Assembly (NCBI GenBank): GCA_016176405.1
Contig: JACOXG010000011.1
Location: 1 to 63,277, forward strand
Reading direction: 5' to 3'
DNA from: Candidatus Daviesbacteria bacterium
GTDB lineage: Bacteria > Patescibacteriota > Microgenomatia > Daviesbacterales > UBA10151
Length of the DNA stretch: 63,277 nucleotides
Part shown: piece by piece, positions 501 to 57,037 of the stretch
Layout: the number at the start of each line of letters is the position of its first letter
Position numbering within the stretch: position 1 is the first letter of the stretch
Notes under the pieces: model-generated
Told to the model about the DNA's origin: nothing
The model's database searches: none
Seen by the model: only the letters and a program-made list of their open reading frames with translations
Translations under genes and position numbers: made by a program

Positions 501-1154
501 ATGGATATCTATTGGTATGGCCAAGCCTGTTTTAAGTTGAAAGGTAAATCAACCACCATTGTGATTGACCCGTTTAGTCCTGAATTTACTGGTTTGAAAA
601 AACCTAAAGATTTAGAAGCAGATGCTATTTTAGTCACCCATGAGCATGAAGATCATAATTTCACTGATTTGGTGGCTCCCAAAGAGGGGATGATGGTGTT
701 TAGCCGTCCTGGTGAATATGAGGTGAGTGGTGCGGTGATTACTGGCATAGACTCCTTTCATGATGAATCTTTGGGTTCACAGCGCGGTTCAAATACCATT
801 TTTCATTTAATGATGGATGGATTAAATATTGTGCATTTGGGAGATCTGGGTCAAAGTAAGTTGAGCGAAGAGCAACTGACTCAGATTGGGGATGCAGATA
901 TTTTGCTGACCCCGGTAGGCTCAATCTATACTATTGATGCCAAGGCAGCCTCGGATATTGTAGCCCAGCTGGAACCAAAAATTATCATCCCCATGCATTA
1001 TTTGATTGAGGGTTTAAAGTTCCAATTAGAGGGCGTGGATAAATTTTTGAAAGAAATGGGAGTGGAAGGGGTGGTCCCACAACCCAAGTTATCCATTACA
1101 AAAGAAAAATTGCCTGAAGAACCACAGGTGATTTTGCTTGCAAAATCATCCTGA
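501..1154 (+). CDS. MBL-fold metallo-hydrolase (UPF0173-like)
   Basis: HEHEDH metal motif. MDIYWYGQACFKLKG start is typical of the family. ATG 501 is preferred because 408-500 overlaps the divergent gene at 1-439. Confidence 0.8.
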   Translation: MDIYWYGQACFKLKGKSTTIVIDPFSPEFTGLKKPKDLEADAILVTHEHEDHNFTDLVAPKEGMMVFSRPGEYEVSGAVITGIDSFHDESLGSQRGSNTIFHLMMDGLNIVHLGDLGQSKLSEEQLTQIGDADILLTPVGSIYTIDAKAASDIVAQLEPKIIIPMHYLIEGLKFQLEGVDKFLKEMGVEGVVPQPKLSITKEKLPEEPQVILLAKSS

Positions 1155-1174
1155 GCGATTAGCGAAGGATCTGG
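1146..1174 (+). repeat. single copy of the GTCATCCTGAGCG..CGAAGGATC repeat family
   Basis: TCATCCTGAGCGATTAGCGAAGGATCTGG overlaps the stop codon of the MBL gene. Related copies at 25102, 25149, 26830, 27149, 42071, 42115, 45529 and 57000. Confidence 0.7.
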
Positions 1175-2735: not shown

Positions 2736-3251
2736 ATGGCGGCACCACCGAGTAAACGCAAAACTCTGACTAATATAATCCTTTTAATTCTTGAGAAATC
2801 AGTCGATGGCACAGTGAGAATAAATGACTTTCTCAACAATCCTAGTTTTTATGCTTACAAAGGAGGCTGGGACTATCCTCTTAAAAAGAGTTCTTTAGCT
2901 AGAACAGTCAAAAGACTCAGAGAGAATGGTTTGATCGATTTTATCAGCGATCAGGAATTGCTTATTAGATTGACTGATGAGGGTAGGGATAGAGCATTAT
3001 GGGAAAAGGTGAGGTCTGAAAATACAAAATGGGATGGGAAGTGGAGACTGGTGATTTGGGATGTTCCAGAAAAAAGAAGGCAAGCAAGAGATTTACTTCG
3101 GTATAAACTTAAACAACTGGGCTTTAAACAGTGGCAGCAAAGTGTCTGGGCTACCAAAGTAAACTGTACAAAACTCTTAAGAGATTTTATTAGGAAGGTA
3201 GGGATAGAGGACTGGGTGATGGTAGTAGAATCTGATAATGTGGGATTGTAA
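2736..3251 (+). CDS. PaaX-like transcriptional regulator (C-terminal PaaX-type domain)
   Basis: WDGKWRLVIWDVPEKRRQARDLLRYKLKQLGFKQWQQSVW matches the PaaX-family signature as I recall it. Confidence 0.65.
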   Translation: MAAPPSKRKTLTNIILLILEKSVDGTVRINDFLNNPSFYAYKGGWDYPLKKSSLARTVKRLRENGLIDFISDQELLIRLTDEGRDRALWEKVRSENTKWDGKWRLVIWDVPEKRRQARDLLRYKLKQLGFKQWQQSVWATKVNCTKLLRDFIRKVGIEDWVMVVESDNVGL

Positions 3252-3275
3252 CAAATTTCCTCCGGCCGTGGGAAA
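3251..3275 (+). repeat. direct repeat copy 2 (ACAAATTTCCTCCGGCCGTGGGAAA)
   Basis: Starts at the last base of the PaaX-like stop codon; 22/25 identical to 2700-2724. Confidence 0.7.
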
Positions 3276-3293
3276 AATGAAATTTTGAGATAA

Positions 3294-24560: not shown

Positions 24561-25094
24561 ATGATAATCCTTGGTATTGATCCTGGAACTGCCACTACTG
24601 GTTGGGGACTGATTAAAGTCCCTGATGATATATTAGGCAGGCAGTTTGAATATGGAATTGAGTTAATCAGTTATGGCAACATTTTTACTGATAAGGACAA
24701 ACCCATGGCTGAAAGACTTTGGAAATTATCCAGAGAACTGGATGATTTAATTAAGAAATATCAACCAGATCAGATAGTGACCGAGATGTTATTTTTTGGG
24801 GCTAATCTAAAAACAGCCATCATGGTGGGGCAGGCCAGGGGAATAGTCTTGATGTCCTCTGCCAAATATAGGGTACCTATTACAGAATATACTGGCTTAC
24901 AGGTAAAACTAATGGTAGCCGGAGCAGGCAGAGCTGATAAGGCTCAGGTACATGAGGGAGTAAGAAGATTTTTGGGGAGTAATGGAAGAAGACGCAAAGC
25001 TTTAAAGGTTAATTGGGTAGGAGGACATTTGGATGATGCTACAGATGCCTTGGCCATAGCAATATGCCATGTGCTGAAGCTGGTTTCGAAGTAA
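24561..25094 (+). CDS. ruvC: crossover junction endodeoxyribonuclease RuvC
   Basis: ILGIDPGTATTGWG and C-terminal DDATDALAIAICH. Confidence 0.92.
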   Translation: MIILGIDPGTATTGWGLIKVPDDILGRQFEYGIELISYGNIFTDKDKPMAERLWKLSRELDDLIKKYQPDQIVTEMLFFGANLKTAIMVGQARGIVLMSSAKYRVPITEYTGLQVKLMVAGAGRADKAQVHEGVRRFLGSNGRRRKALKVNWVGGHLDDATDALAIAICHVLKLVSK

Positions 25095-25101
25095 TGAGAA
25101 A

Positions 25102-25183
25102 CCATCCTGAGCGCTCACTAAAGAGCGCGAAGGATCTCGATCATATAGGAGATCCTTCGTCGCTAATCGCTCCTCAGGATGAC
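25102..25183. repeat. empty inverted pair of the GTCATCCTGAGCG..CGAAGGATC family
   Basis: Forward CCATCCTGAGCGCTCACTAAAGAGCGCGAAGGATCTC (25102-25138) and reverse GAGATCCTTCGTCGCTAATCGCTCCTCAGGATGAC (25149-25183). Confidence 0.8.
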
Positions 25184-25215
25184 AAACTGCGTTAAGAAAT
25201 TGTACGCAGTTTGTC
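25181..25215. other. perfect 12-bp stem-loop GACAAACTGCGT-N11-ACGCAGTTTGTC
   Basis: Read directly; no T-tract, so terminator function is uncertain. Confidence 0.6.
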
Positions 25216-25222
25216 AAATAAT

Positions 25223-25999
25223 ATGAACCTAAACAAACGCCAAAAAATAATCATTACCACCATCTTACTAACCTTAGGTTTACTTTCCACCCAGTTGGTG
25301 GATTTTAATTTAAGATTTAGATTTATTGCCGGGCTCGGCGTGGTGGCCTACTTTCTATCACTTTGGGCACTTTGGGAAGGTTTAAATAAGACCAAAGCTA
25401 TCATACTGATGATTTTGCCAACCTTTTTCACTGTGGCTGTGGCCAGTTTTTATTTTTTGCTGCCTGTCAGATGGCTGACCAGGCTGCCAGTGGCTTTATC
25501 TTTTGGTTTAACTTTCTACCTGTTACTTTTATCACAAAATGTGTTCAATGTGGCTTCAATCCGGACCATCCCACTTTATCGAGCTGCCTCTACGGCAGCT
25601 TTTCTTTTTACGCTGCTTTCAGCATTCTTTATATATAATGTAGTTTATGCTTTTAATCTGTTATTTTTTTGGAACGGGTTACTGGTGGCCTTGATTAGTT
25701 TTCCTTTAATTTTACAAGTACTTTGGTCAATAGAGATGGGGGAGAAAATTACAGCCTCAATTTTGGTTCAAGCAGCCATTTTAAGTTTAGTGATAGGGGA
25801 ACTGGCACTGGCATTCTCATTTTGGCCAATGGTTACCACCATTTGGTCTTTATCTTTATCCTCAGCCATGTATGTACTGTTAGGTTTAACCACCAATGTT
25901 TTAAGAGGCAGGGTAAATAGCAGGGTAGTGTGGGAGTATTTGGGGATAGGGGTAGTGGTTTTAATTATCAGCTTCTTTACTACCTCATGGACTGGGTGA
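25223..25999 (+). CDS. polytopic integral membrane protein, unknown function
   Basis: About 8 hydrophobic helices; ATG 25223 preferred over TTG 25211, which lies in the stem-loop. Confidence 0.65.
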   Translation: MNLNKRQKIIITTILLTLGLLSTQLVDFNLRFRFIAGLGVVAYFLSLWALWEGLNKTKAIILMILPTFFTVAVASFYFLLPVRWLTRLPVALSFGLTFYLLLLSQNVFNVASIRTIPLYRAASTAAFLFTLLSAFFIYNVVYAFNLLFFWNGLLVALISFPLILQVLWSIEMGEKITASILVQAAILSLVIGELALAFSFWPMVTTIWSLSLSSAMYVLLGLTTNVLRGRVNSRVVWEYLGIGVVVLIISFFTTSWTG

Positions 26000-26002
26000 T
26001 TA

Positions 26003-26100
26003 GATGCGAGAAGTTAGAAGTGGGAAGATGGATTATTGAGATGAGAAGTGAGATAATCACACATCATTATCCATATTCACATTTCCCATATCTCATATCT
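26003..26100. repeat. heptamer-periodic array (GANNNNN)x8 followed by six inverted-type units
   Basis: gatgcga gaagtta gaagtgg gaagatg gattatt gagatga gaagtga gataatc | acacatc attatcc atattca catttcc catatct catatct. Its reverse complement resembles 63233-63277. Confidence 0.8.
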
Positions 26101-26425
26101 GTTATAAATATCAAGAATAGAGCTATATAACAAGCTAAAGTAGAGGAGTGGAGTAAAGATTTTCCGACGAAAGCGTGAAAACTTATAGGATATTTCGTGA
26201 AAAAAAATCTATGTTATAGTATGATATATTTGCCAGGCACAAATGTGGAAAACTATGGGGTCTATTATGCCTACTCTTGGCATCCTATGTATATAATTGC
26301 TAATGTTGTTCTTTAGATAACCTCGTTATCGCAAGAACTGATAAGTTCTTACATAACCCGAAGCTCCTCGGAGAAGAGAGGTGCTCTGTCCCTTCGCAAT
26401 TTTAATGATTTAATAGTTGACTAGT

Positions 26426-26477
26426 GAAATAAGCTAACTAGTTAACTAGTCCACTGATTCGCTAGTTAGCTTATTTC
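26426..26477. repeat. perfect 16-bp inverted repeat GAAATAAGCTAACTAG-N20-CTAGTTAGCTTATTTC
   Basis: Read directly; embeds the 32-nt repeat shared with 18136-18167. Confidence 0.85.
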
Positions 26478-26829
26478 CCTCTCTTCGGTCTTCCCTATAT
26501 TATCTTGTCGGACAATGTATCTTATGCGATGTCAAAGAAGTGGTTTCCTGGAGAAGTGGCTTTGGTACAACTTAAGCATCTAATTAATGCCAAAGCCAGC
26601 GGATTTTGACTACTATATTTTGGTATCTATTTTGTTATATTCCCGACCAAAATTTTTATTAATAATTATTGCCAAATTATAAACTATATCAATTAAGTCT
26701 TTAGGGCTTTGGGACGGCCTAACCTAAGGATGACTCAATATAGCTCTTATCCCCTGAGAAGCCGTTTTTAGGCCCTTGCAAGGCTTCATGCCTAACTAGC
26801 CTCAGAAGATGTAATGGACCCCAGCCCGT

Positions 26830-27175
26830 GTCATCCTGAACGAAGTGAAGGATCTGATTAAGTGTTTAAATCATTCCAATATGGATTCATACTCATAATA
26901 AGGGAATTTTTCTTTTTTCTAGTCCACCCTTTAAGTCGTTTTTCTGCCGCAATAGCATCATTAACCTGACCAAATTCTTCATAGTATAAAAGTTTAGTGA
27001 TGTTATATTTTTTAGTAAAACCCTCAATTAATTTATTTTTATGTTCATAAATTCTTCTAGTTAGATTGTCAGTAATACCTATGTATATGACTTTATTATT
27101 AGGATTACTCATTATATAAACCCAATAGCTCATCTTTAGATATTATCAGATTCTTCGCTAATCGCTCAGAATGAC
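26830..27175 (-). mobile_element. GIY-YIG nuclease gene flanked by inverted copies of the GTCATCCTGAGCG..CGAAGGATC repeat (candidate autonomous unit)
   Basis: GTCATCCTGAACGAAGTGAAGGATC at 26830-26854. The reverse complement of 27149-27175 is GTCATTCTGAGCGATTAGCGAAGAATC. Confidence 0.45.
26858..27133 (-). CDS. GIY-YIG nuclease-domain protein (UPF0213/YhbQ-like)
   Basis: YWVYIMSN..VIYIGITDNLTRRIYEHK..E..K motifs. Confidence 0.88.
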   Translation of the reverse strand: MSYWVYIMSNPNNKVIYIGITDNLTRRIYEHKNKLIEGFTKKYNITKLLYYEEFGQVNDAIAAEKRLKGWTRKKKNSLIMSMNPYWNDLNT

Positions 27176-27258
27176 ATTCTTGATCTGTCCTTTTGTTGTC
27201 GGACAATATAACTCACTGCTTGACAGCTTGTCTTGTTTTGTTCTACTGTAAACTTATA

Positions 27259-28230
27259 GTGGAAGAAAAGCTTTTCTCCAAGAAAAACCTGATCACCTAT
27301 TTAGGTATGGCCATTTTAATTGTGGCCATTCCTCTGGCAGTCAGATTGGTCCAAACTCAACAACAATTTAAATCCCGGGCAGCCGGCGATGAGATTAAAT
27401 TTGTGGAATCTGAAACCTTAACTTGTGATGATCAGGGAGCTTGTACCACCTCATCCACCACCATTGCCATGGAGTTAACCTCACCTTTGGGTCCGCCAGG
27501 ATCAGTGACTCCTCCACCCCCACCACCTGGACCTCCGCCACCGCCTCCTCCACCAGAACCACCCCCACCACCTCCGCCCCCACCCCCACCAGCCGGGGAT
27601 TCTGCCTCTGTCACCGGTTCCCAAACAGCCATCACTGGCCAAGCAGTCACTTATACAGCCACTTTATCCGGAGCATATATCACCGGTGAAATTCATATAG
27701 CCAAAGGTGATGGATTATCTCCAGTACCAGGATGTTCCACTCCACCTCAAGACCAAGATAATAGTAAGGGAGAATATTGGTGCAGAATTGCCAGAGGAAG
27801 TGCCCCATCTTTTAGTGGGAATTTCACATTTACTGAGGCAGGTACATACAGAGTGGCTGTTAATGGGTATAAATTTGATATTAATACTACTGACTATGAT
27901 GCTACCAAAACTTGTTCTGGTAATCCTTTTGGTAGATATGATTCTGATCCCAATAAAGGTTGGGTTAGTTGTGGCCCAGAAGATGATTTAACTGTTACAG
28001 TCACCGGTTCCTCCATCACTGTTCCCACTGCCAGTCTGTCTGTTTCATCAACTTCTGTTACTCCTGGTCAAACAGTCAATGTGGCTGCCACTCTCGGTGG
28101 TACTGCTCAATATGGAGAATTATTTGTCACCAAAGGTGATGGAAAAACAGAATGGAATTGCCCAGCAGGCACAACTCGAGCCAGCGGCTGGCCAAATAGT
28201 AAAGGTGAATATTGGTGTAAATTAAACTAA
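27259..28230 (+). CDS. secreted/anchored repeat protein with 27-residue poly-proline linker
   Basis: N-terminal anchor conserved with the next gene (VRLVQTQQQFKSRAAG). Contains 1.5 copies of a NSKGEYWC..ATKTCSGNP..GWVSCGP module. GTG 27259 chosen by analogy with the paralog. Confidence 0.7.
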   Translation: MEEKLFSKKNLITYLGMAILIVAIPLAVRLVQTQQQFKSRAAGDEIKFVESETLTCDDQGACTTSSTTIAMELTSPLGPPGSVTPPPPPPGPPPPPPPPEPPPPPPPPPPPAGDSASVTGSQTAITGQAVTYTATLSGAYITGEIHIAKGDGLSPVPGCSTPPQDQDNSKGEYWCRIARGSAPSFSGNFTFTEAGTYRVAVNGYKFDINTTDYDATKTCSGNPFGRYDSDPNKGWVSCGPEDDLTVTVTGSSITVPTASLSVSSTSVTPGQTVNVAATLGGTAQYGELFVTKGDGKTEWNCPAGTTRASGWPNSKGEYWCKLN

Positions 28231-28234
28231 TAAT

Positions 28235-29224
28235 ATGAGTAACAAAATTTTAACCAAGAGAAATATTATTTTATATGTGGTTATAGCAATAATTTTGGTG
28301 GCAATCCCAGTTACCCTTAGGTTGGCGCAGACACAACAGCAACTTAAATCAAAAGCAGCAGGCGAAGGCATCACCATTAATGGTAGCTTTACCCCCCAAG
28401 AGGTAGGTACCTATATCGTGGCTGTTAATGCCTATGGTTATCCTCAAGGTTCTACTTATGATGCTACCAAAACCTGTTCTGGTAATCCTTTAAATAATTA
28501 TGATCCAGCTAACCGTGGTTGGGTAGATTGTGGACCTAATGATAATGTGACAGTAAATGTGGCTAACTTACCAGACCTAATTACTACCAACCTCAATGTT
28601 TTAGCCAATACTTCAGCAGGACTAGTAGTTGGTCTGGTCGCCAATCTGGAAGGAACCATTAAAAATCAGGGTACTGCCATGGCCTCCGCTGCCGCAGTCA
28701 GTTATAAAGTTGATAACCAACTTATTGCAGAGCAATCTACTCCTGAAATTGCTCCGAATTATGCCACCACCAAGTCTGCTGCTTGGACAGCCACCACTGC
28801 CGGTACACACACCTTTACCATTTGTGCTGATAGTAACAATGTGGTGACTGAATCTGATGAGATTAACAATTGTTCTAATCTAGAATTTACCGTGGAAGCC
28901 ACTGCTCCTCCCCCACCACCGCCTCCACCAGCCAATTCTATCAATGGTACAGCCTATTGGTTTTCCAGTGGTGGTTGGTGGGTGCCGGATAGTAATATCA
29001 CCGTTACTGTCTACATTGGCAGTACGGTGGTAGCTACAGGTATTTCGGGTACAGATGGAATCTATTCAGTCACCAATGTACCAGCTGGTACTTATACAGT
29101 CACAGGTGAAACAAATATCACTGGTCAATACTTAGGTGGTGGTTACTACAGTGATGTTAAAAATAATATTACTGTGACAGATGGTCAAGCCACCACCAAT
29201 GTGAACTTATACTTATTGCCATGA
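28235..29224 (+). CDS. secreted/anchored protein: module remainder + CARDB-like + carboxypeptidase-regulatory-like domain
   Basis: PDLITTNLNV..IKNQGTAMA..ESDEINN (CARDB pattern), poly-Pro linker, GTDGIYSVTNVPAGTYTV. Confidence 0.75.
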   Translation: MSNKILTKRNIILYVVIAIILVAIPVTLRLAQTQQQLKSKAAGEGITINGSFTPQEVGTYIVAVNAYGYPQGSTYDATKTCSGNPLNNYDPANRGWVDCGPNDNVTVNVANLPDLITTNLNVLANTSAGLVVGLVANLEGTIKNQGTAMASAAAVSYKVDNQLIAEQSTPEIAPNYATTKSAAWTATTAGTHTFTICADSNNVVTESDEINNCSNLEFTVEATAPPPPPPPPANSINGTAYWFSSGGWWVPDSNITVTVYIGSTVVATGISGTDGIYSVTNVPAGTYTVTGETNITGQYLGGGYYSDVKNNITVTDGQATTNVNLYLLP

Positions 29225-40437: not shown

Positions 40438-41244
40438 ATGAATAACAATCCAATTGGCATATTTGATTCAGGGATCGGTGGTTTAACAGTTGTTAAGGAA
40501 ATTTTAAAAGAATTACCCAGTGAAAATATTATTTATCTAGGTGATACAGCCAGAGTGCCTTATGGCACTAGAGGTAAGGAAGTTATCACTAAATTTGCTT
40601 TGGATCTGGCCAATTTCCTTTTAAAAAAGAAAGTCAAATTTTTAGTAGTTTCTTGTAATACCATTTCCTCTATCTGTTTGGATGTAATTGAATATATTTC
40701 CCCTGTGCCAGTTCTGGGAGTTATCCAACCGGCTGTAGATGAAGCCTTAAAGACTACCAGATCTGGTGTAATAGGGGTAATAGGAACTCCTGCCACCATT
40801 GCTTCTAAAATTTATGAGAAAAAACTTAAAAGGAAAAATCCCAAATTAAAAGTAAAGACTGTCTCCTGTCCTTTATTTGTGCCTCTGGCTGAAGAGGGAT
40901 TGATAAATCATGCTGCCACTAAATTGGTAGCCAAAGAATATCTTAAAGGATTCAAAAATAATGGAATTGATACTTTAATTTTGGGTTGCACTCACTATCC
41001 CATCCTAAGATCCATTATCCAGCAAACAGTTGGACCAAAAGTAACTTTGATTGATTCAGCCAAACCTACGGCCAAAAAACTGAACGAGCTTTTAGAAGAA
41101 AAAAATTTACTAAGAAGTGAGGAAAAAGTTAGGCATGAGTTTTTTGTGACAGATGCACCAGAGAGGGTGTATAAAGTGGCTGACAATTTTTTTGGCGATC
41201 ACCTAAATGGGAAGTTAAAAGAGATTAACCTACCAATTGCTTAG
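40438..41244 (+). CDS. murI: glutamate racemase
   Basis: IGIFDSGIGGLTV and LGCTHYP catalytic Cys motifs; ATG 40438 preferred. Confidence 0.92.
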   Translation: MNNNPIGIFDSGIGGLTVVKEILKELPSENIIYLGDTARVPYGTRGKEVITKFALDLANFLLKKKVKFLVVSCNTISSICLDVIEYISPVPVLGVIQPAVDEALKTTRSGVIGVIGTPATIASKIYEKKLKRKNPKLKVKTVSCPLFVPLAEEGLINHAATKLVAKEYLKGFKNNGIDTLILGCTHYPILRSIIQQTVGPKVTLIDSAKPTAKKLNELLEEKNLLRSEEKVRHEFFVTDAPERVYKVADNFFGDHLNGKLKEINLPIA

Positions 41245-42604
41245 CAATTTTATCTATATCCCCTGCTCCCATGAAAAAGATAATATCACCACTTTGAACA
41301 TGGTGTTTAAGCATTGGTATTATTTGGTCCTTGGTATGATAGACTAGATTACTTGACCCAACTGCCTCTACTAATTGTTTTGAAGTAACTAAACCTGTGT
41401 CCACTTCCCTACTTGGATAAATATCAGTAATAATTATTTTGTCCACAGGTAATTCTTTAAATACTTTGACAAAATCATCAAAAAGGGCTTTTGTTCTAGA
41501 AAACATGTGGGGTTGATAAATTAAAATAATTCTATTTTTAGGAAATTTTTCCCTGGCAGCTTGCATGGTGGTTTTTATTTCTGTTGGGTGATGTCCAAAA
41601 TCAGAATAAACCTTAGCTCCCACTTGTCCTGAGCTTGTCGAAGGATGGTACTCCCCAATATACTCAAATCTTCTGCCTATTCCAGGGTAATTGGATAAAC
41701 TTTTTTGAATAGTTTGTGGACTAATTCCTAAAAGAAGTCCAACTTGATAAGCTGCTGAGGCATTCCATCTGTTAAATTCACCAGGAATCTCTAAGGAAAA
41801 ATCTATGGGTTTCTTTGAATAATCTAAAGTTATATTGCCACCCTTGGGGTGGACATTCAGAATTTCTGTTACTACAGGATCCGAAAGATTGGCCACAATG
41901 GTCTGTTTTGTGGATTCCAAGAATTTTTTAAAACTATCTTTGTACGAATCAAAATCCTGAAAATACTCCGGATGATCCATTTCAATATTGGTGACAACTG
42001 AAATATCAGGAGAGGTTGCTAAAAAATTATCATTAAACTCATCAGCTTCAACTAGGAAAAAACCCTTTTTGTCATCTCGAGTGATTAACGAGAGATCTCT
42101 AGATTTTGAATCATGAGATTCCTCACTTCGTTCGGAATGACGTGAGGAAATTCTGTAATTTGCTTTCCACCAAGGGACTATGGTTCCTAGTTCCACCGTA
42201 GGATCTAGCCCAGCATCCTCTAAAATTTTAGCAATCATGGCAGTGGTGGTAGTTTTACCATGAGTTCCACAAACAGCTATTACAAATTTATCCTTCATTA
42301 AATACTTTCCCATAAACTCCTGCCAAGTAAGAATAGGAATTTCCCCCCCCTTTGCCTCTAAAAGTTCTGGATTATTGGGATCTAAAGAGTATATGGCAGG
42401 TGTTACTGCCAATATATCTACGTTCCCACTTTTCAAGTGGGAAGCTGAATGCCCTTGGGATAACTTGACACTTCCGATGTGTAAAGTGAATTCGTTGTTT
42501 GGCTCAAGGTCACAGCCACTAACTTCAAATCCATAAGCTTTTGCAATAGCTGCAGCAGCAGATGCTCCAGACCCCCCAATTCCTAAAAAATGTACTTTTT
42601 TCAT
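41225..42604 (-). CDS. murC: UDP-N-acetylmuramate--L-alanine ligase
   Basis: GIGGSGASA, GTHGKTTT, EADEF, NIEMDH, GHHPTE motifs. Carries repeat insertions. Confidence 0.93.
   Translation of the reverse strand: MKKVHFLGIGGSGASAAAAIAKAYGFEVSGCDLEPNNEFTLHIGSVKLSQGHSASHLKSGNVDILAVTPAIYSLDPNNPELLEAKGGEIPILTWQEFMGKYLMKDKFVIAVCGTHGKTTTTAMIAKILEDAGLDPTVELGTIVPWWKANYRISSRHSERSEESHDSKSRDLSLITRDDKKGFFLVEADEFNDNFLATSPDISVVTNIEMDHPEYFQDFDSYKDSFKKFLESTKQTIVANLSDPVVTEILNVHPKGGNITLDYSKKPIDFSLEIPGEFNRWNASAAYQVGLLLGISPQTIQKSLSNYPGIGRRFEYIGEYHPSTSSGQVGAKVYSDFGHHPTEIKTTMQAAREKFPKNRIILIYQPHMFSRTKALFDDFVKVFKELPVDKIIITDIYPSREVDTGLVTSKQLVEAVGSSNLVYHTKDQIIPMLKHHVQSGDIIFFMGAGDIDKIAKQLVG
42071..42141. repeat. in-frame inverted pair of the GTCATCC..GGATC family inside murC
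   Basis: GTCATCTCGAGTGATTAACGAGAGATCTC (42071-42099) and GAGATTCCTCACTTCGTTCGGAATGAC (42115-42141), translated as SRHSERSEESHDSKSRDLSLITRDD. Confidence 0.8.
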
Positions 42605-56999: not shown

Positions 57000-57037
57000 G
57001 TCATCCTGAGGAGCCATAAAGGCGACGAAGGATCTGG
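57000..57037 (+). repeat. single copy of the GTCATCCTGAG..CGAAGGATC family
   Basis: GTCATCCTGAGGAGCCATAAAGGCGACGAAGGATCTGG between two pilin-like genes. Confidence 0.75.

Follow-up and report, generated by a model that had tools for sequence, protein, structure and literature searches.

A predicted Ssn-type GIY-YIG nuclease gene framed by oriented hairpin repeats on a Candidatus Daviesbacteria contig

What is the role of a small GIY-YIG nuclease gene that lies between two inverted copies of a dispersed hairpin repeat? The question is raised by positions 26830-27175 of a 63,277-nt contig of Candidatus Daviesbacteria (JACOXG010000011.1), the whole of which is called the window here. A preliminary description of the same DNA had read this 346-bp unit as a candidate autonomous element of a family of nuclease genes and miniature inverted-repeat transposable elements (MITEs). 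We concluded that the window very probably holds an Ssn-type single-stranded-DNA nuclease with its cognate hairpins, an Ssn/SRM system, because the protein is homologous to SsnA and carries its catalytic residues, the hairpins have the outer architecture of the NTS repeat, and gene and hairpins are associated. The anatomy of the unit, the covariation of the hairpins, the association of gene and hairpin across phyla and the homology to SsnA were observed directly.

The Ssn system of a nuclease and its hairpin repeats was described by Chenal et al. (Nat Commun 2025;16:2388, PMC11893778); Ssn stands for site-specific single-stranded nuclease and SRM for Ssn-related motif. SsnA of N. meningitidis is a 94-aa single-domain GIY-YIG protein (CDD cd10448, GIY-YIG_unchar_3) that binds the NTS repeat CGTCATTCCCGCGMAVGCGGGAATCYRG, a hairpin also written CGTCATTCCC...GGGAATC, solely as single-stranded DNA. 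The enzyme is inactive on duplex DNA, on RNA and on the reverse strand, and cuts a few nt 5' of the repeat. Binding of single-stranded DNA and upstream cutting were shown for four homologs, and the exchanges Y6A, Y17A and E64A abolished cutting by SsnA. The C right after the palindrome matters most for binding and the three nt before the palindrome for cutting, while the loop is dispensable. SRMs, described broadly as hairpin-forming inverted repeats of 20-50 nt, were surveyed in RefSeq reference and representative genomes: at least one was found near 71% of the homologs, with SRMs on both sides in 42%, and 81% of the genomes with more than 200 SRMs encode an Ssn homolog. In Neisseria SsnA lowers transformation by NTS-bearing DNA, and the authors propose single-stranded-DNA tools (PMC11893778). 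We found no later work on SsnA in the literature, and nothing relevant on UPF0213/YhbQ-type proteins and REPIN or MITE repeats.

The predicted protein of the window matches the GIY-YIG family over residues 3-75 of its 91 residues and contains no extra domain, in keeping with the single-domain proteins of about 90-150 aa that make up the Ssn family. Its AlphaFold2 model (predicted local distance difference test score 96.4) shows one compact, bare GIY-YIG domain, with UPF0213 BH0048, Slx1 and the UvrC N-terminal domain as nearest folds in a PDB set that contains no Ssn structure. A tblastn search of a plasmid collection (7.3 Gb) gave a match to two N. gonorrhoeae chromosomes (E=2e-17), and pairwise alignment with the SsnA ortholog encoded there (locus L088, 1501-1770) showed 46% identity over residues 5-89 without a gap (E=5e-27). 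With 85 of 91 residues covered, the protein is thus an SsnA homolog, measured against this ortholog, by the definition of the SsnA paper (blastp E<1e-10 and at least 75% coverage). By count the gonococcal ortholog has 94 aa, Y6, Y17 and E64 among them, and 11 canonical NTS copies are found within 3.2 kb at its locus. This locus (NZ_CP119142.1 1880219-1883473; also NZ_CP119140.1) lies on 2.17-Mb chromosomes that are filed as plasmids in PLSDB. In both records the ortholog has no in-frame ATG (ATG CAC G, followed directly by GTT...), only a 71-aa ORF (open reading frame) starting at TTG is called, and the gene may be frameshifted in those strains.

In an alignment of 45 homologs the residues Y6, Y17, G19, R27, H31, F39, Y43, A60, E64, K65, K68, R72, K75 and N83 were invariant; all are present in the window protein and in the gonococcal ortholog, and the catalytic Y6, Y17 and E64 have the same numbering as in the SsnA paper. 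E. coli YhbQ, a UPF0213 protein, was 28% identical to the window protein (pairwise E=8e-10). The PDB gave no match to the single sequence, and a profile reached 1ZG2 (BH0048) at E=4e-7; no NCBIfam model matched the protein. By these comparisons the protein appears related to UPF0213 but closer to SsnA, and the label UPF0213-type in the preliminary description seems inaccurate. The statement that such stand-alone proteins have no established function has been out of date since activity was demonstrated for the Ssn family in 2025 (PMC11893778). A database search returned 815 relatives at E<1e-5; the best 120 of these were 59-73% identical, and the named relatives among the best 120 come from very distant phyla.

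On the gene strand the 346-bp unit consists of a forward hairpin, the gene and a reverse hairpin (Table 1), so that the unit is bounded by terminal inverted repeats, and oriented hairpins with a GTC tag and a 3' C stand less than 500 bp away on either side of the gene, as they do at most of the homologous loci described below. The sequence GTCATCCTGAACGAAGTGAAGGATC (26830-26854) lies 3 nt past the GIY-YIG stop codon, and GTCATTCTGAGCGATTAGCGAAGAATC, the reverse complement of 27149-27175, lies 15 nt 5' of the ATG. The latter hairpin is divided into the parts GTCATTCTGA-GC-GATTA-GC-GAAGAATC. Only one copy of the GIY-YIG gene is present in the window. The arrangement of repeat, gene and inverted repeat, the coordinates, the two distances and the length had all been given correctly before, as had the observation that the gene-less pairs at 25101-25183 (given there as 25102-25183) and 42071-42141 share the forward-reverse geometry of the gene unit.

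To see whether the link between gene and repeat is general we used 80 homologous loci from more than 15 phyla, one genome per species, including Clostridia, Ignavibacteria, Chloroflexota, Cyanobacteria, Bacteroidota, Pseudomonadota, Acidobacteriota, Actinomycetota, bacteria of the candidate phyla radiation (CPR) and others. The ssn homologs are 51-66% identical to the window protein across very distant phyla. A loose detector (TCA plus a 5-bp stem) was dropped since its background was too high (1321 matches vs 531 in shuffles). A strict detector found 393 hairpins where 15 were expected. Up to 200 nt from the gene their density was 5-8 per kb, and beyond 1 kb it was 0.06-0.2 per kb, a 30-100-fold difference, and they were polar: up to 50 nt upstream of the gene forward and reverse copies stood at 18 : 4, and up to 50 nt downstream at 4 : 18. 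A G preceded TCA in 357 and a C followed the stem in 359 of the 393 hairpins (91% each), neither being required by the search; these are the positions that the SsnA paper found critical for cutting and for binding, respectively. With a tolerant detector (444 matches vs 2 in shuffles) a hairpin was found within 150 nt of the gene at 61 of the 80 loci. The commonest class, a strict forward-gene-reverse arrangement, was present at 24/80 loci. The remaining loci mostly carry variant hairpins by eye, for example of a perfect-stem Bacteroidota type. We concluded that the association of gene and hairpin, with hairpins clustered at the gene in forward-gene-reverse polarity, is general across phyla.

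The geometry around the gene varied. Forward-forward, reverse-reverse and pair-gene-pair arrangements were frequent; whole pairs stood on both sides at L008 and L009, same-orientation copies at L005 and L018, and alternating arrays also occurred. Adjoining forward-reverse pairs had a modal spacer of 17 nt. Tandem arrays of alternating forward and reverse hairpins, similar to BIMEs, were seen at L005 (8461-8876), L009 (9538-10490) and L059 (several clusters), and L005 further has five forward copies with an 84-nt period beside or near the ssn gene. Among annotated database homologs, N-terminal tails like CHSERSEES, CHPERSEGS or CHVERSETS are common, as are C-terminal tails like DSSLRSE or DPSLRSG; they represent a translated forward hairpin upstream and a translated reverse hairpin downstream. 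At 6/80 loci the ssn ORF extends across the downstream hairpin and takes the TGA of ATGAC as its stop. Perfect-stem hairpins such as GTCATTCCTGCGTAGGCAGGAATC were observed at L024, L025, L035, L039 and L061 (Bacteroidota, Cloacimonadota); they resemble NTS and have no G.A loop. The proteins of these loci are about 60% identical to the window protein, so that hairpin class does not simply follow protein similarity.

Both a structure-aware scan and a covariance model found exactly 8 hairpin copies in the window, arranged as three forward/reverse pairs, one around the gene and two without a gene, plus two single copies. The covariance model was built from hairpins of other genomes and one window copy (42117-42141). 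The E-values of the 8 copies ranged from 5e-7 to 0.11 and the next match had 0.7; a degenerate 25-mer pattern of the repeat was expected 0.00 times in shuffles. The unit has the consensus GTC-A(T)nnn-GA-[2-6 bp stem, 3-6 nt loop]-GA-nnn(A)T-C(T). Its outer stem of 5 bp leads into a symmetric internal loop of tandem G.A/A.G, which is capped by a small hairpin. Among the window copies the outer stem covaries (ATCCT/AGGAT, ATTCT/AGAAT, ATTCC/GGAAT, ATCTC/GAGAT). To avoid circularity, a covariation set was collected from 80 other genomes by sequence anchors alone (GTCA-N4-GA-N7-GA-N4-TC), with no pairing required. The anchor search gave 128 sites vs 0 in shuffles, 66 of them distinct. In this set the outer-stem positions were 89-95% paired, and three stem positions each used C-G and T-A in many copies. 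In a formal count 90.5% of the stem cells were paired and 104 cells showed a double change vs 31 in shuffles; the observed value was reached in 0/500 shuffles, and all slid registers collapsed in the same test.

Table 1. Positions of the gene and of the hairpin copies in the window
Feature	Position	Strand	Support
ssn-like gene, 91-aa single-domain GIY-YIG nuclease (predicted)	26858..27133	minus	Pfam PF01541 E=6.5e-18
Forward hairpin on the sense strand of the gene	27149..27175	minus	covariance model 33 bits, E=4.6e-5
Reverse hairpin relative to the gene (opposite strand)	26830..26854	plus	covariance model 41.7 bits, E=6.1e-7
Hairpin, left arm of gene-less pair, between ruvC and next gene	25101..25136	plus	covariance model E=0.11
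Hairpin, right arm of ruvC-side pair	25151..25183	minus	covariance model E=2.2e-4
Hairpin, one arm of murC pair, translated in frame	42071..42097	plus	covariance model E=7e-5
Hairpin, other arm of murC pair, murC sense strand	42117..42141	minus	covariance model E=5.2e-7
Single hairpin between ORF 408-1154 and dnaB	1145..1171	plus	covariance model E=0.019
Single hairpin in 51-nt intergenic gap of plus-strand gene row	57000..57034	plus	covariance model E=1e-3

The weakest copy, the left arm near ruvC, has a degenerate 5' tag (ACCAT vs GTCAT) and an inner stem of 6 bp, and its DNA folds with -9.9 kcal/mol (z=-3.5). The spacer of this pair is 15-16 nt, depending on how the trailing C of each unit is counted. 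The single hairpin near dnaB (TCATCCTGA) supplies the TGA stop of ORF 408-1154, which lies just upstream of dnaB. Around the ssn unit itself, an AT-rich stretch of about 830 nt on its left (26000-26830) has no ORF of at least 40 aa and includes a 28-nt inverted repeat at 26423-26480. The near-palindromic sequence TTGTCGGACAAT occurs at 26505 and 27195 (26500-26522, 27191-27213) and flanks the unit at unequal distances. Just downstream, at 27193-29224, are two adjoining ORFs whose proteins have a hydrophobic segment at the N terminus and long stretches of proline (PPPPPPPP), and which have internal sequence segments in common.

Some observations weigh against the assignment to Ssn. The activity of the 91-aa protein on hairpins with a G.A loop is extrapolated from its homologs, and the ortholog used for comparison was a gonococcal proxy for N. 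meningitidis SsnA (CAX49033.1) that has no in-frame ATG in that strain. The role of Ssn outside Neisseria is described as unknown by the authors of the system (PMC11893778). Most single units fold weakly by nearest-neighbour DNA folding (-1.6 to -3.6 kcal/mol, z -1 to +0.7); since the folding energies are not significant for most copies, the structural case rests on the covariation. Finally, the published degenerate SRM string, HGTCWYN(0-2)YYVSBRHN(0-5)WNVSBRGN(0-2)RNCYNB, which is a search pattern and not a definition, matches 0/8 of the window hairpins, so that recognition of this variant is extrapolated as well. In 1.17 Mb of ssn flanks the string gave 14 matches, and a match at most 500 nt from the gene at one locus. 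The string fails because the G.A internal loop breaks its YYVSBRH segment. The covariance model derived from G.A-loop hairpins aligns to 11/11 gonococcal NTS copies via GUCAU-stem...stem-AUCU. The G.A-internal-loop hairpin is a variant of the published Ssn hairpins and may be new.

If the protein acts as its homologs do, it would be a monomeric single-domain GIY-YIG endonuclease that binds the forward hairpin strand solely when this is single-stranded, for example in incoming transforming DNA or in the lagging-strand template. Recognition would involve the GTC tag on the 5' side, the stem and the C that directly follows it, and the enzyme would cut a few nt 5' of the tag by means of Y6, Y17, R27, H31, E64, N83 and Mg2+. 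Owing to the inverted orientation of the two flanking copies, a forward hairpin stands at the 5' boundary of the gene unit on either strand, and the predicted cuts would consequently fall just outside the unit, one per strand. The idea that the small protein recognises the repeats, put forward from the DNA at the outset, agrees with the biochemistry of the published homologs, which bind the repeat as single-stranded DNA and cut next to it (PMC11893778). The enzyme may limit recombination of hairpin-bearing single-stranded DNA, and might in some way drive the spread of the hairpins, as RAYTs do for REPs. Type IV pilus components are encoded in the window (a PilB-like ATPase, a second T2SSE ATPase, a PilC-like protein and a prepilin peptidase), which makes uptake of single-stranded DNA plausible in this organism; from this we infer that the system could have a role in restricting transformation here.

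The hairpins could instead act in RNA, as stabilisers, processing sites or terminators of the kind proposed for REPs, with the nuclease gene lying among them or homing into them. Such a role would suit the intergenic position of most copies (sequence outside long ORFs, 18% of the total, holds 64% of the distant copies), the placement of both single window copies on the sense strand of their gene rows, and tandem G.A pairs, which are common in RNA too. However, intergenic copies away from the gene were oriented 22 : 20 relative to flanking transcription, i.e. without bias, and no terminator-like T run followed the hairpins. Rfam, searched with gathering thresholds over the whole window and with permissive E-values over 24900-27400, gave one tRNA plus noise and no hairpin family. 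The enzyme SsnA, homologous to the window protein, ignores RNA (PMC11893778). In the anchor set G-T pairs (G-U in RNA) were nearly absent among the covarying pairs, and the commonest loops were GNA triloops closed by C-G, as in GCGAAGC, not GNRA or UNCG. The sequence d(GCGNAGC) is a classic, unusually stable DNA mini-hairpin, so these loops and the rarity of G-T pairs point to structure at the DNA level, and we regard an RNA-level role as very improbable. A hammerhead or other ribozyme reading of CUGA...GAA was rejected by inspection, as the core CUGANGA is absent. Similarly remote is the idea that the gene encodes a free-standing GIY-YIG homing endonuclease and has the spacer between two hairpins already in place as its target, the gene-less pairs being empty homing sites. 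Occupied and empty sites would then look alike, and the spacer of the 25101-25183 pair (CTCGATCATAT...) does resemble the stretch directly inward of the forward hairpin in the gene unit (CTGATAATAT...). Yet whole pairs or same-orientation copies are often found beside the gene, the protein lacks the DNA-binding domain that characterised GIY-YIG homing enzymes have, and SsnA does not cut double-stranded DNA (PMC11893778).

More serious, though in our judgement unlikely, is the proposal that forward-ssn-reverse is a transposon similar to an insertion sequence and that gene-less pairs and single copies are non-autonomous derivatives, moved by the nuclease via single-stranded intermediates. The terminal inverted geometry is the commonest one (24/80 loci in the strict sense, and 28/51 of the hairpin pairs that span the gene), forward-reverse pairs with the modal spacer recur, and the protein identity across very distant phyla suggests horizontal transfer. 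One homolog is found in the gap between glyQ and glyS. Hairpins have clearly reached new sites, namely in murC, in the glyQ-glyS gap and at ORF stop codons; they were inserted even in frame in murC, where alleles with and without the insert are interspersed. The same idea is raised in the Ssn paper, whose authors liken NTS-ssnA-NTS to an insertion sequence and to RAYT/REP, an analogy that the preliminary description had also drawn; they do not demonstrate mobility (PMC11893778). Against this stand the frequent other geometries, the absence of target-site duplications at the three window pairs, the single gene copy in the window, with a second copy within 20 kb at 2/80 loci, and the chemistry of GIY-YIG enzymes, which hydrolyse DNA and have no known joining or strand-transfer step. 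Moreover, two homologs that we followed across contigs from different metagenome and genome samples were each found at a single, unchanging locus in all places read (10 and 9), and no hairpin insertion or deletion was found between these places. For one of them, identical Ssn proteins of Portnoybacteria are encoded between glyQ and glyS in many independent samples (L089-L098, gene 3001-3285); the other has a Wzy_C gene on one side and a BBP2_2 gene on the other (L099-L107). An apparent 76-nt length difference between contigs with the same Ssn protein was explained by Ns that fill a scaffold gap. A search for an empty site at the ssn locus met relatives at most 71% identical in MurC, with synteny that breaks before the ssn position, and so yielded no comparable site. 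The marks of an insertion sequence (target-site duplications, multiple copies, presence/absence differences among relatives) were thus not found, and there was no sign of ongoing transposition of the ssn gene in the window, at the 80 loci or for the two homologs on many contigs. The claim of an autonomous element with MITEs therefore stays unproven. RAYTs are single-copy and vertically stable, and the pattern of ssn appears to match theirs.

The hairpins in murC allow a closer look at the arrival of repeats. The gene (41225-42604, minus strand) contains the pair 42071-42141, translated in frame as RHSERSEESHDSKSRDLSLITRDD. The insert site is a loop, NYRI-GKGK-YFVxEADEF, in which most relatives read GKGK. 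Five other Microgenomates MurCs (P0128, P0148, P0150, P0177, P0238) have an insert in the same loop, four of them a single hairpin and one a different pair, and the nearest MurC relatives of each carrier are without insert. The codon register was read in the DNA of two of these five carriers (L082 10493-10518, with a single hairpin, and L083, with the other pair) and in the window, and in all three GTCAT begins 7 nt after the conserved AGA-AYT codons. Either insertion has occurred repeatedly at a preferred site, or an old insert has kept its pairing while its stems changed. A frequent MurC loop variant, PRQKVHDRE, was rejected as a hairpin remnant because no hairpin is present at the DNA level. 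The MurC homologs place the window in Candidatus Daviesbacteria/Microgenomates. In-frame hairpin insertions in murC may be new, and, occurring at one recurrent loop, they form a natural test case for whether and how the repeats move, a question that the Ssn paper leaves open (PMC11893778).

A bolder proposition, to which we give limited credence, is that the Ssn-hairpin unit is, or recently was, a mobile element driven by the GIY-YIG enzyme and dependent on single-stranded DNA, that its REPIN-like single and paired hairpins can spread to new sites, also in frame into essential genes, and that the G.A-loop hairpin forms a separate specificity class. At least six Microgenomates murC alleles, including that of the window, carry a hairpin at the same loop where their nearest relatives have none. 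If the proposition is true, murC hairpins in the same loop and register would indicate site-preferred insertion or long-term selection inside a coding sequence, and the G.A-loop hairpin would represent an enzyme/hairpin specificity class that the published pattern misses.

The identification as an Ssn system has several consequences. A system characterised in 2025 could be recovered from a raw sequence reading. The system itself is already published; its instance in a CPR host similar to Daviesbacteria may be new, and it places Ssn in an ultra-small CPR bacterium, a group not met in the accessible discussion of PMC11893778. As the SRM string misses the hairpin class that dominates around the closest Ssn homologs, the 71% given in PMC11893778 is probably an underestimate. 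A distinct enzyme/hairpin pair also becomes available for the proposed single-stranded-DNA tools.

Among known systems, GIY-YIG homing endonucleases of the I-TevI and Seg type differ in having a C-terminal DNA-binding domain, whereas the window protein is the catalytic domain alone. UPF0213 proteins (YhbQ; B. halodurans BH0048, PDB 1ZG2; E. faecalis EF2693, PDB 1YWL) are likewise small stand-alone GIY-YIG proteins and provide the nearest PDB folds, but the relationship is distant, with 28% identity to YhbQ and a PDB match by profile alone; to our knowledge no hairpin-repeat association has been reported for YhbQ. Rickettsia palindromic elements (RPE) are also short palindromic repeats found in frame in coding genes, as here in a tolerated surface loop of murC. 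They measure 100-150 bp and have no known cognate enzyme, whereas the window inserts are hairpin units of 25-75 nt from an Ssn-associated family. RAYT/REP, REPINs and BIMEs likewise combine a single-copy nuclease gene with short tagged hairpins on its flanks; there, too, hairpins stand alone, in inverted pairs or in alternating arrays, the enzyme recognises hairpins of single-stranded DNA (for the window protein presumed by homology), and the gene looks vertically stable. RAYTs are HUH Y1 transposases similar to TnpA of IS200/IS605, while the window protein is a GIY-YIG hydrolase of an unrelated fold and lacks the HUH character; GIY-YIG enzymes form no covalent intermediate, so that rejoining of DNA is not obvious, and the tag is GTCA instead of GTAG or CGTC. 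The closest counterpart is Ssn/NTS itself. In both systems the GIY-YIG protein consists of one domain of roughly 90 aa and shares the positions of Y6, Y17 and E64, and window protein and gonococcal ortholog are 46% identical without gaps. In both, oriented hairpins bracket the gene, with GTCAT as the tag on the 5' side, a stem that varies and a C on the 3' side, and the repeat is also dispersed through the genome, mostly between genes. The window system differs in its CPR host, in the two hairpin copies translated inside murC, and in its stem, which is a perfect 8 bp in NTS and is here broken by the tandem G.A/A.G loop and capped by a mini-stem of 2-6 bp, often d(GC-GNA-GC).

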